The position numbers were made by a program, and so were the translations under genes. The notes under the pieces were generated by a model. It had not been told where the DNA came from. It did not search any database and worked only from the letters and a program-made list of their open reading frames with translations. 64,000 nucleotides of DNA from Rhizodiscina lignyota. Taxonomy: Eukaryota. Positions 19,831 through 28,362 of the stretch are shown here, in pieces; position 1 is the stretch's first letter; each line of letters opens with the position of its first letter. Where the stretch lies: the NCBI GenBank assembly GCA_010015805.1, contig ML978135.1, positions 1 through 64,000 of the forward strand, written 5' to 3'.

Positions 19831-20211
19831 ATTTTGACAAGCGCAGGGAGAGACACAAGGGAAGACCTATTTCCAATGGAACAAGAGGTTCCGGAGCCAA
19901 AGGGGAGGTAATGAGGTACGTTTGAAGCATTTAAACTGTGGTGGAGGACTAGCTAACGTTGTCTGAAGCCACGATGACAATAAGACATAGATTCACTCTT
20001 CTGTATGATATTAGATCCCCTGTATAAGTACAGAGATACCCCACGACTTCACTTTAAGGATTTGGTCCAGCCTCAGAAGCGGCATCAATCAAATTACATC
20101 ATAGATGCTTACTGTGCCGACTAAATACTATCAACCCACCGCTTGTATAGCTACAGCGATCGCTACAACTCTAAGTATTGGCGTTGTCAATTCCAACAAG
20201 TCTATCAGGCA

Positions 20212-22030
20212 TTACTTTCCTGTATACTTCTTCTCCAGCCAACGAAAAACGGGAAACGCGAGTGCGGAAAAGGCAAAAGTCAACTCGTGCCCAATATTCG
20301 CACCTTTTGCACCAATCAAGCTAGCGATCGGAGCAGTGTACCAGGCAACCTTCATTCCCAACGCTGCGCCGATAAATCCGAAACAGAATGCGCCTATCGC
20401 TCCCCAGCCGAACGGCAGCAGTTTCGGGTTGTCCCAAGAGTCCAGGTCGTACCGGCTCCATCGTCTCGCTCGGAAAATCAAGTGCTCCTCAGCTACGACG
20501 ACAATGTGGATTATTGTCCAGTAGCCAATGACACTCAGGAACGTTTGCAGCGTGTCGTGGAAATACCGAGCAGCGAAGCAACCGACGATTATAGCTACAA
20601 CGAAGCCGAAGGTCACAAGCACAACCCGAGGTATCTTGAGCGCCCACGGGCCGAAGTTCTGTGCGTGCAACGCGAAGGAGTAGTTGTTCGGGATATTGTT
20701 CGGGATCGAGCTTAGAGCAGCCAGGACCAGGAGGAATTTTCCAAACCCGCCTGCTGGTTCTAACGCCATCTTCAGTGGTCCACCTACACCTGCCTCTTGG
20801 TATGCCAGCTTCCAACTTGGATTGACGAAGGTTCCGCTGTATATGGCTGCTCCCAGAGTTTGCACCAGGACGGTGGGCACGAGAATGCCAACGTATGTCG
20901 CAAAGAAGATTCTGCTTCTGGGTGTATCCACTGGCATTCTGACGTTATAATCCGCGGCGCAGTTGACCCAAGATGTCGAGAAACTGAGGATTATTGCGAT
21001 GAACGACAGCGCAGAGGCAGCACCATTAGCACCAGTCGGCGACTTGATCGCCGTTCCACTGAATTTCGAGGCGCCCGTTCCCGCTGCAACACACCAGACG
21101 ATGAATGGCGGAACCCAAAGGAACGCGTCAAGTCGATGAATCCACGTTATTCCAAGGGCACAGATGATCCAGACAGTAGTGCAGATTATGATGACCCCTG
21201 CCCACTGAGGGCAACGTCCGTCTGAAAGGGCGTACAACACCGAAGCTCCACTTATCGAGTTGATTGCGTTCCAACCTGTAGTGGACACCATTGAGAAGAT
21301 GACAACCAGGATGTTTCCCCAGTATCCAAATGAGAAGCGTCTGGAACGATCAGTATCCAGTCTTGTGCTACGAATGAGCTACTTCCCAGCGAGCGAACGA
21401 GACCTGCAACGGCATCCCTTTCCTTTGACAATGAAATAACCTTCTGAGTAAGGCTGCGTAGGCTACTCCCTGACAACCTCGAACGCAACTTCATCGATGT
21501 GAGGAAGCTTCTTGGAAGTACCGGGAGCAACTTTAACAGGGTAGCTCAGCAGACCGTTCGCTCGCCGAAACTAGCTCCATCGTAGAAACGGTTATCGACT
21601 TACGAGAACGTCGTCATCCTCAAACCCGTCAGGCCGAATGAAGCAGTCCAAGCTGGTATCAAGCAGCTCGCGACATTCACGACGAGGATTATTGCGAAAC
21701 AATCCCAGAATGCCAGACCCATCGTGCCGCCTACCATGCCTGTGCTCAGCGTAGCCACGGCCATGTTTGCGCTCAGCCTGTCTCTGATCAGCTATTGGGT
21801 GAAATGGGGTTGCACTGCGAAGCTGACCAGAAAGTGCAAGCGTTCCACCATTTAGTAGTATTGTGCCGCCTGTCATCTTCGGTGACGCGCTGAATACCAC
21901 CCTTCTCAAAGGCAATCGTTCGTGCCCAGCGACCCATGAACGATGAGCCTTTGTCATTGATGATCGATCCTTCCTCGGTCACACTTAAATTACTCGTGTC
22001 TTGCTTCACCACAGGTGTCTTCTCGTCCAT
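20212..22030 (-). CDS. NCS1-family purine-cytosine permease (Fcy2/Tpn1-like); introns 21778-21827 and 21341-21603
   Basis: EKGGIQRV, FW|LSAN, G.RMTTFS|RFSFGYWG, GWNAIN, SWVNCAADY, NNIPNNYS, FLSVIGYW, EHLIFR; many hydrophobic segments. Both introns restore the frame. Confidence 0.9.
21368..21585 (-). repeat. Long imperfect inverted repeat inside intron 2 of the NCS1 permease (arms 21368-21407 and 21549-21585)
   Basis: Transcript 5' arm CTACGATGGAGCTAGTTTCGGCGAGCGAACGGTCTGC aligns to the reverse complement of the 3' arm CTACGAATGAGCTACTTCCCAGCGAGCGAACGAGACCTGC. Confidence 0.85.
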
Positions 22031-27042: not shown

Positions 27043-28362
27043 TCAGAATCTTTCCCTAGGCCCATTGCCATGATTCTCGAACAGGTCCTCCAGGTACGCA
27101 CTCGGCGTCCTTCCTCCAGGTTGCTGCGTTCCACCTGGCACATTCAAGTTCAGACTGCTGTAACTGGGCGCGCTGTACAACCCGCCCGTCGGCCCGCTGA
27201 CCTGTCCCACCACAGAGCTCGCGTTTCCAGGCGACAATGTTCTCGACGCCGTTCCAGAGGGTGCTGTGGGCCCCAAAGCAGGCGAGCCAGGCGGCGAAGG
27301 GCCGAACGACTGTGTACGCTGGTAGCCCGCAGATTCTGCGCGCAGGCCGGAGAGGCGGTCGCTGAGGGGATTGAGGATGCTCGATCCACGTTGGCCGGCG
27401 GCGTGCGCGTTGATGTGAGTGGTGCTTTGTCCTCCCGCTGGCTGTGATGAGCCTGAGGCGTAGTATCCGGCTGGAAGCAAGTTCGAGGCGCGATTGCCGG
27501 CGGAGAGATGTGCGGCGGGTGCTTGGCTGTGGTGGCCAGCGCCTGCTGTAGGTGAGAAGAATAGATTCTGTGTGCTTGCGCGAGCGTTTAGAAGAGTGGA
27601 TGGAGTTCCACCTCCCAGCGAAGACGAGTGCTTGTGGGAACTGCGCTTCTTGTTGGATGCTGGAGCCGCGAGGTGCTCCATCGAGGCCATGGAGCCAACT
27701 GGCGGTTGGGAGTACACGGCTGAAGAAGGTGCCGCGTACATATTCGTCTTGAGATCAAACGTCTGGTGATGGGCGATTGCGGCACGCTTGACCGAGCGAG
27801 AGAGCGACCAGGCAACCATAGCGCGCCAAAGGAGGACGCAAGCACCGAAGAAACCAAGAATCGCACCGACGATGATGAAGACGCTGCCTTCTGGAAGGTT
27901 GGACTTCTGCATATAGGGCGCCTTTGCAGTGTTGGGGACTGTCGGTGTCGGATTGGTGGCACCGGCCACGGTTGGAAGATTTGACAGATGAAAGATGGGG
28001 CCAGTAGTAGATGAACTGGCTGGAGTGGAAGAGCTTATGTGGATACCATTTGAAAGAGTGACATCGACACCCGTGACCGTCGAGCCTTTGCTGTCGGTTG
28101 AGGTTGCCGCGGAGGTGGAGGTAGCTTTTGACGTGGTAGCCTTGCCGGTGTTCGATGTCGATGCTGCTTTCGTCGTCTCAGAGCTCTGATCGCTCGTGGA
28201 ATCCGAGCTACTAGGGCCGCCCACGGTCGATGCCGTCTTGAGGTTCGGCAGGTCGCTGAGCGATTGTGCCATACATTGCGTGGAGAGAATGAATAGGAGG
28301 AGTAGCGAGAGTGCAGCTGCTGCGCCGTGAGAGCCTCCTGAACGACCGTTGCTCCACCTCAT
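27043..28362 (-). CDS. CSI2-like type I membrane protein (signal peptide, Ser/Thr-rich ectodomain, one TM, disordered tail)
   Basis: APYMQKSNLPEGSVFIIVGAILG..LLWR..VAWSL.RSVKRAA, LFFSPTAG, C-terminal RTPSAYLEDLFENH. Confidence 0.8.
   Translation of the reverse strand: MRWSNGRSGGSHGAAAALSLLLLFILSTQCMAQSLSDLPNLKTASTVGGPSSSDSTSDQSSETTKAASTSNTGKATTSKATSTSAATSTDSKGSTVTGVDVTLSNGIHISSSTPASSSTTGPIFHLSNLPTVAGATNPTPTVPNTAKAPYMQKSNLPEGSVFIIVGAILGFFGACVLLWRAMVAWSLSRSVKRAAIAHHQTFDLKTNMYAAPSSAVYSQPPVGSMASMEHLAAPASNKKRSSHKHSSSLGGGTPSTLLNARASTQNLFFSPTAGAGHHSQAPAAHLSAGNRASNLLPAGYYASGSSQPAGGQSTTHINAHAAGQRGSSILNPLSDRLSGLRAESAGYQRTQSFGPSPPGSPALGPTAPSGTASRTLSPGNASSVVGQVSGPTGGLYSAPSYSSLNLNVPGGTQQPGGRTPSAYLEDLFENHGNGPRERF

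Follow-up and report, generated by a model that had tools for sequence, protein, structure and literature searches.

Rhizodiscina lignyota is a Dothideomycete fungus belonging to the order Aulographales. The sequence described here is a stretch of 64,000 nucleotides (nt) of its genome (positions 1 to 64,000 of contig ML978135.1, forward strand, assembly GCA_010015805.1), and "the window" refers to this whole stretch. On its minus strand the window harbors a gene for a predicted Fcy-type permease of the NCS1 family, whose three exons join to a product of 501 amino acids (aa). The second intron of this gene (intron 2), with a length of 263 nt and a large part folding back on itself, is the subject of this study. 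The gene is composed of the following features:

22030..21828, minus strand: exon 1, with the more 5′ in-frame ATG (22030) taken as its start
21827..21778, minus strand: intron 1, an ordinary short intron of 50 nt (GTCAGC...CTGAT...CAG)
21777..21604, minus strand: exon 2, permease coding
21603..21341, minus strand: intron 2, 263 nt, phase 2 (GTAAGT...CTGAT...CAG), at the junction also found in the deposited protein P0001
21340..20212, minus strand: exon 3, including the stop codon and matching Pfam Transp_cyt_pur

The 501-aa product contains, letter for letter and from residue 32 onwards, the 470 aa of the deposited R. lignyota protein P0001 (record name 'hypothetical protein NA57DRAFT_46788 [Rhizodiscina lignyota]'), which shows 100% identity to the permease of the window. 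Because the spliced product contains P0001 exactly, the public gene model has the same intron boundaries as used here. Exons 2 and 3 meet at ...GLRMTTFS/RFSFGYWG..., and this junction lies within a gapless alignment to orthologs of 498-508 aa, which have the matching junction ...MTTFSR[YF]SFGYWG.... Exon 3 matches the Pfam family Transp_cyt_pur (PF02133) with an E value of 6.6e-12 and 45.4 bits (cut-off 23.5). The nearest named relatives carry the name purine-cytosine permease FCY2, among them the one of Mytilinidion resinicola with 85% identity. With this domain and FCY2-like orthology, the host gene is classified by its sequence as an NCS1 transporter of the Fcy-type purine-cytosine permease group. 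At its 5′-end (window 21937-22030, minus strand), P0001 begins at the second in-frame methionine, and the ATG at 22030 adds the 31 residues that lead to 501 aa. The public gene model may be too short at the N-terminus, the length of 501 aa being closer to that of the orthologs. In intron 1 (window 21778-21827, minus strand) the donor GTCAGC is non-consensus.

Intron 2 has the donor GTAAGT, the acceptor CAG, and a CTGAT branch motif whose A occupies intron position 254. This branch A is located 253 nt from the donor and 9 nt from the acceptor. If intron 2 were retained, translation would end at the donor itself, where the reading frame continues as TCG-TAA. From the donor to the acceptor, intron 2 can be divided as follows:

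21586..21603, minus strand: 5′ linker, 18 nt including the donor GTAAGT, predicted to be mostly unpaired
21368..21585, minus strand: foldback core, the presumed insert, 218 nt, intron positions 19-236, folding alone to -94.3 kcal/mol
21549..21585, minus strand: 5′ stem arm, 37 nt, intron positions 19-55, with 34 pairs to the 3′ arm
21408..21548, minus strand: interior between the arms, 141 nt, not palindromic as DNA and weakly structured
21368..21407, minus strand: 3′ stem arm, 40 nt, intron positions 197-236
21341..21367, minus strand: 3′ linker, 27 nt, containing the CTGAT branch motif and a predicted small local hairpin in which the acceptor AG is paired

The two arms are predicted to form a long stem with a few small internal loops. 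Its 34 pairs comprise 30 Watson-Crick and four G-U pairs; compared as DNA, the arms agree to about 81% over a stretch of 32 nt. The distance from the end of the stem at position 236 is 13 nt to the ACTGAT motif and 17 nt to the branch A. Without the 218-nt core, intron 2 would be exactly 45 nt long. A preliminary description of this DNA, made from its letters, had already proposed much of this geometry. Its 263-nt intron at 21341..21603 is recovered as a GT-AG intron with boundaries equal to the P0001 junction, and its stem of about 37/40 nt beginning 18 nt into the intron is found at positions 19-55 and 197-236. Furthermore, the four arm mismatches that it read as G-U pairs on the transcript are the four G-U pairs of the predicted stem, and the remainder that it put at about 45 nt proved to be exact. 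The statement that the stem ends "just before" the branch site was loose, the intervening distances being 13 and 17 nt. The preliminary description also proposed that the stem would juxtapose the splice signals, which is correct in terms of geometry and matches the concept of zipper stems (PMC12350175).

Folding of intron 2 was compared with 200 dinucleotide shuffles. The whole sense RNA reached a minimum free energy of -100.4 kcal/mol versus a shuffle mean of -78.2 kcal/mol (sd 4.6), corresponding to a z-score of -4.84, and none of the 200 shuffles folded as well, so that the strong fold suspected in the preliminary description withstood this control. The excess is due to the one long stem. 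For the antisense strand, the corresponding values were -82.7 kcal/mol and a z-score of -2.97. Even after shuffling, the sense strand folds better than the antisense strand by 10 kcal/mol, and part of the gap between the strands therefore results from the richness of the sense strand in G and U. In a coarse scan of the 64 kb with 532 windows of 240 nt and residuals corrected for GC content, intron 2 was the strongest folding outlier of the minus strand (residual z-score -3.04), and its region was outside the top eight outliers of the plus strand. When 100 nt of exon were added on each side, the 34 stem pairs had a mean pairing probability of 0.92. In this exon context, the predicted probability of being unpaired was 0.80 for the donor positions 1-6, 0.75 for the branch motif, and 0.03 for the 3′ splice site. 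A small hairpin, CUGGA...UCCAG, is predicted at window positions 21341-21360 (minus strand; intron positions 244-263), in which the loop holds the branch A and the acceptor AG is paired; it may have arisen by chance.

The 141-nt interior gave a z-score of -1.82 in sense orientation, with eight of 200 shuffles folding as well, and of +0.50 in antisense orientation. According to these predictions the interior is marginally structured, and the multi-way junction that the preliminary description had placed in the loop is poorly supported. Given the antisense value and the lack of a palindrome in the DNA, the architecture would be one in which inverted ends of about 40 nt flank a middle of 141 nt that is unrelated to them, as known from non-autonomous elements. 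The four G-U pairs all fall on the sense strand. By chance this would happen with a probability of 1/16, which is a hint but falls short of significance, and C-to-T mutations in the non-transcribed strand could produce the bias as well.

For comparison with the same site in other fungi, metagenome contigs were scanned with an alignment of 12 orthologs, yielding 31 fungal loci. The junction is covered in 28 of them, the exceptions being L019, L020, and L031. At the identical codon position and in the same phase, an intron is present in 15 of the 28 loci, which represent 12 distinct sequences (L001 is identical to L002, and L004 to L010 and L011). All 15 orthologous introns are short, with lengths of 45-65 nt and folding energies between -1.6 and -12.3 kcal/mol. 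The hairpin is present in none of the 15, and none is similar to intron 2 of the window, which is 4-6 times as long. This holds for the closest intron-bearing loci by protein identity as well, namely L027 (82%) with an intron of 52 nt and L001 and L002 (80%) with introns of 54 nt. In the orthologous introns, the donor is 35-50 nt from the branch point and the branch point 8-17 nt from the acceptor. Intron 2 without its core has a length of 45 nt, a donor-to-branch distance of 35 nt, and a branch-to-acceptor distance of 9 nt, and the intron of L003 shows exactly these values (45/35/9). Within the window itself, where the preliminary description had put most introns at about 50-95 nt, a crude scan for splice signals delivered ten intron candidates of 50-82 nt and 13 longer, unverified ones.

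The distribution of introns at the MTTFS/R junction is split among the loci. An intron is found in L001-L004, L010, L011, and L021-L030 (15 loci) and none in L005-L009 and L012-L018 (13 loci). The presence and absence at one junction indicate that an intron was lost, or gained, among the relatives at this site.

Since the orthologous introns at the shared site are short, the simplest reading is that the site is old, that the intron is ordinarily short, and that the core is a lineage-specific addition. We consider it highly probable that the core was added in this way to an ancestral short intron and that it is not a conserved regulatory RNA. The whole account, in which an inverted-repeat insert specific to this lineage resides in an old short intron and its stem explains why it is tolerated, is the preferred reading and is given a probability of roughly 0.6. 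In this account, the ancestral state would be an ordinary short intron of about 45 nt in the Fcy-type NCS1 permease gene. The lineage of R. lignyota would then have gained a 218-nt insert with inverted-repeat ends of about 40 nt in the spacer between donor and branch point, which on the simplest reading is the one stretch of a short intron able to accommodate extra sequence. In the pre-mRNA, the ends of the insert would pair as the 34-bp stem and loop the insert out, bringing the effective donor-to-branch distance back to about 35 nt and thus into the range of the orthologs. As the stem would take 218 nt out of the path, the machinery for splicing short introns would still be able to define and excise intron 2. 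The role of the stem would be passive, the reason for a tolerated insertion and not a sensor. The insertion event and a stem that forms in vivo and aids splicing are thus what we infer from the geometry and the predicted fold. Possible sources of the insert are a mobile sequence resembling a miniature inverted-repeat transposable element (MITE) or an introner-like element (ILE), or a local inverted duplication. This agrees with a fallback interpretation of the preliminary description, an insertion of the MITE or introner type, which fits the site shared by 15 of 28 loci, the short hairpin-free introns found there, and the remainder of 45 nt with its ortholog-like spacing.

The closest functional parallel is provided by the zipper stems of Saccharomyces cerevisiae introns such as those of RPS17B and RPL7B, which colocalize donor and branch point and which some introns need for efficient splicing (PMC12350175). 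Likewise, the stem of intron 2 loops out sequence and would shorten the donor-to-branch distance from 253 to about 35 nt. In contrast to the yeast cases, the host is a filamentous fungus in which normal introns at this site measure 45-65 nt, and the stem, predicted here from the sequence, is far longer (34 bp) and resembles the ends of an insert. The same source requires a zipper stem to keep 10 nt or more from the donor and 20 nt or more from the branch point, with a total linker of 42 nt or more. These values were obtained by modelling the A complex of S. cerevisiae and may not apply where introns of 45 nt are spliced. Starting at position 19, the stem of intron 2 keeps the required distance from the donor. 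Since it stays below the two other positional minima, it is proposed, by analogy, to work like a zipper stem and is not claimed as a member of the yeast set.

Several results weigh against the preferred reading. By the S. cerevisiae values, the 17 nt between stem and branch A fall short of 20 nt and the total linker of 35 nt falls short of 42 nt. The prediction places the acceptor AG in a base-paired position, which, if real, would be of no help to splicing. The stem is predicted from a single sequence. The sense bias, visible in the four G-U pairs and in the z-scores of the whole intron and of the interior, could hint at selection on the RNA level beyond mere tolerance. No target-site duplication stands out around the core, the best among 288 combinations of boundaries being the 4-nt GATA, of which about one is expected by chance. 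In addition, no second copy of the core was detected in the 64-kb window or in 136 kb of orthologous loci from other fungi (best E value 0.34), both of which are weak tests. A comparison of the translated core with 1.84 billion representative proteins, again a weak test, gave one match with an E value of 4e-4 and 29% identity over three stretches, which is read as low-complexity noise.

The missing copies and target-site duplication also bear on the origin of the foldback sequence, for which two other scenarios have to be weighed. The 263-nt intron as a whole might be an ILE that took the place of the ancestral short intron at this exon junction; one conceivable route is reverse splicing into an already spliced mRNA, followed by recombination. 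The host belongs to the Dothideomycetes, a class with described ILEs, and these are longer than regular introns and have stable predicted structures together with normal splice signals (PMC3609843). Intron 2 complies with the length and energy profile, being several times longer than its orthologous counterparts and folding to -100 kcal/mol where these reach at most -12.3 kcal/mol; the absence of a target-site duplication is what spread without a transposase would leave, and a single copy in 64 kb would, by our own estimate, fit a genome-wide number of a few hundred. However, ILEs are linked to gained intron positions (PMC3609843), whereas position and phase of intron 2 are common to 15 of 28 orthologous loci. 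Moreover, all splice signals of intron 2 reside in the 45 nt outside the hairpin and with ortholog-like spacing, as predicted by a nested insertion, and a second copy was found neither in the nucleotide sequences searched nor in the protein search with the translated core. Replacement by an entire ILE is therefore regarded as unlikely. The hairpin might instead have been born in place by local inverted duplication or template switching, as a neutral, non-mobile oddity in a single copy. This would be in line with the lack of a target-site duplication and of other copies in the sequences searched, and with the similarity of the arms to each other. Against it, neither the interior nor the arms match any possible template elsewhere in the gene or the window, and the unrelated middle of 141 nt is not readily explained. 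We regard this origin, too, as improbable.

The preliminary description favored a different interpretation, a splicing element controlled by a ligand or by structure, and also named the precursor of a small RNA. Such a regulatory device could be a splicing fold that senses a ligand or a condition, or a 34-bp Dicer substrate, either mirtron-like or a precursor of a microRNA-like RNA (milRNA), which tunes the host or other genes. A nearly continuous stem of 34 bp is long enough for Dicer. In favor of such a device, the fold is biased to the sense strand in the whole intron (z-scores -4.84 versus -2.97) as well as in the interior (-1.82 versus +0.50), and all four transition mismatches become G-U pairs on the transcript. 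Retention would stop translation at once by the TCG-TAA across the donor, and the host is a transporter gene like several hosts of fungal riboswitches (PMC5997356). On the other side, none of the 15 orthologous introns carries any part of the structure, so that any function would have to be species-specific and young; this lack of conservation is one half of the refuting condition named in the preliminary description, the other half being constitutive splicing. The interior, which would house an aptamer, folds marginally better than shuffles, the G+U-rich sense strand on its own already gives shuffles a 10 kcal/mol advantage, and no Rfam family was found (best E values of 2.9 and 5.9 within 21000-22000 and none at the gathering score window-wide). 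Without conservation, an Rfam match, or a convincing interior fold, the proposal of a controlled splicing element is not sustained, and a regulatory device is considered very unlikely. Equally little weight is given to a variant in which an intron structure of recent, species-specific origin has acquired a use, as a conditional switch of splicing or as an intronic hairpin cut by Dicer, and in this way determines the level of the Fcy-type permease; we would be surprised if it applied. If true, an insertion in a filamentous fungus would here have given rise to a regulatory intron RNA.

In detail, the permissive Rfam scan of 21000-22000 revealed two chance-level matches, neither of them a riboswitch. 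The sole match overlapping intron 2 was to a flavivirus xrRNA model, with 15.7 bits compared to a gathering score of 46.5. A thiamine pyrophosphate (TPP) riboswitch was rejected, as were other known riboswitches, there being no TPP match up to an E value of 10 in this region, no family at the gathering score in the window, and no such structure in any of the 15 orthologous introns; in agreement with this, the preliminary description had seen no canonical TPP aptamer. Small nucleolar RNAs (snoRNAs) of the box C/D type are recognized by two motifs, box C (RUGAUGA) and box D (CUGA), located close to a terminal stem of short length. An intronic snoRNA was rejected as well, with no snoRNA match on the sense strand and no box C motif (RTGATGA) in intron 2.

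Fungal TPP riboswitch introns, described for THI4, NMT1/THI5, and DUR31/NCU01977 (PMC5997356), resemble intron 2 as structured RNAs in a transporter intron whose long-range pairing affects the choice of splice signals. Unlike them, intron 2 has no TPP aptamer and is not conserved in orthologs. The analogy drawn in the preliminary description is weaker than presented there, as NCU01977, an ortholog of DUR31, belongs to the solute carrier 5 / SSF family and is not an NCS1 permease (same source).

Among intron-borne insertions, the ILEs of Dothideomycetes are multi-copy, long, stably folded, and associated with gained intron positions (PMC3609843). They share with intron 2 the fungal class, a length beyond that of regular introns, a predicted structure of high stability, and splice signals of the canonical type, and differ in that the position of intron 2 is ancestral and its splice signals are outside the folded core. 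MITEs in introns are similar to the core in size (218 nt), in the inverted ends (here 37 and 40 nt) around an unrelated, non-palindromic interior, and in the insertion-tolerant location. In contrast, the core displays no target-site duplication above chance and no second copy in the window or in the 136 kb of orthologous loci. A gapless scan of the whole window for inverted repeats returned ten weak pairs, and the bulged hairpin of intron 2 is split by this method.

The symmetrical sister (stw)introns of Hypoxylaceae, as presented in PMC8469720, have a length of about 200 nt with inverted repeats of 45-55 nt that show about 73% identity and are about 100 nt apart; flanking duplications and Rfam matches are absent there. 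In size, repeat length, and the absence of flanking duplications, intron 2 is similar to these introns. The Hypoxylaceae repeats are terminal, whereas intron 2 has 18 nt ahead of its repeats and 27 nt behind them, and the 10-nt palindrome WTTCTAGAAA given for the Hypoxylaceae is not in intron 2. Furthermore, the sister introns occupy novel gene positions, occur in many copies, and belong to another class, the Sordariomycetes. Membership in this family was rejected, as neither TTCTAGAA nor TCTAGA occurs in intron 2 and its repeats are internal and not terminal.

Intron 2 is a fresh instance of known things, a foldback intron insert with zipper-like geometry. The locus opens no new class of riboswitches or regulatory RNAs, and its worth is that of a test case, not of a discovery. 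If the preferred reading of a looped-out insert is right, it provides a natural example of a fourfold intron expansion tolerated in a fungus with tightly length-limited introns, in which the insert supplies its own closing stem and the splice signals keep their ancestral spacing. It would then bear on the survival of foldback elements and introner-like sequences inside genes as well as on the extension of zipper-stem logic beyond budding yeast.

Two further observations were made in the window. Just 3′ of the permease stop codon, at positions 20146-20173, an imperfect palindrome of 18 nt is located around GCGATCGC, which may be due to chance or may be a piece of a 3′ end signal. On the plus strand, the strongest GC-corrected folding outliers of the coarse scan are found at positions 27241-27720, with residual z-scores of -2.1 to -2.5 and a GC content of 0.61-0.65.

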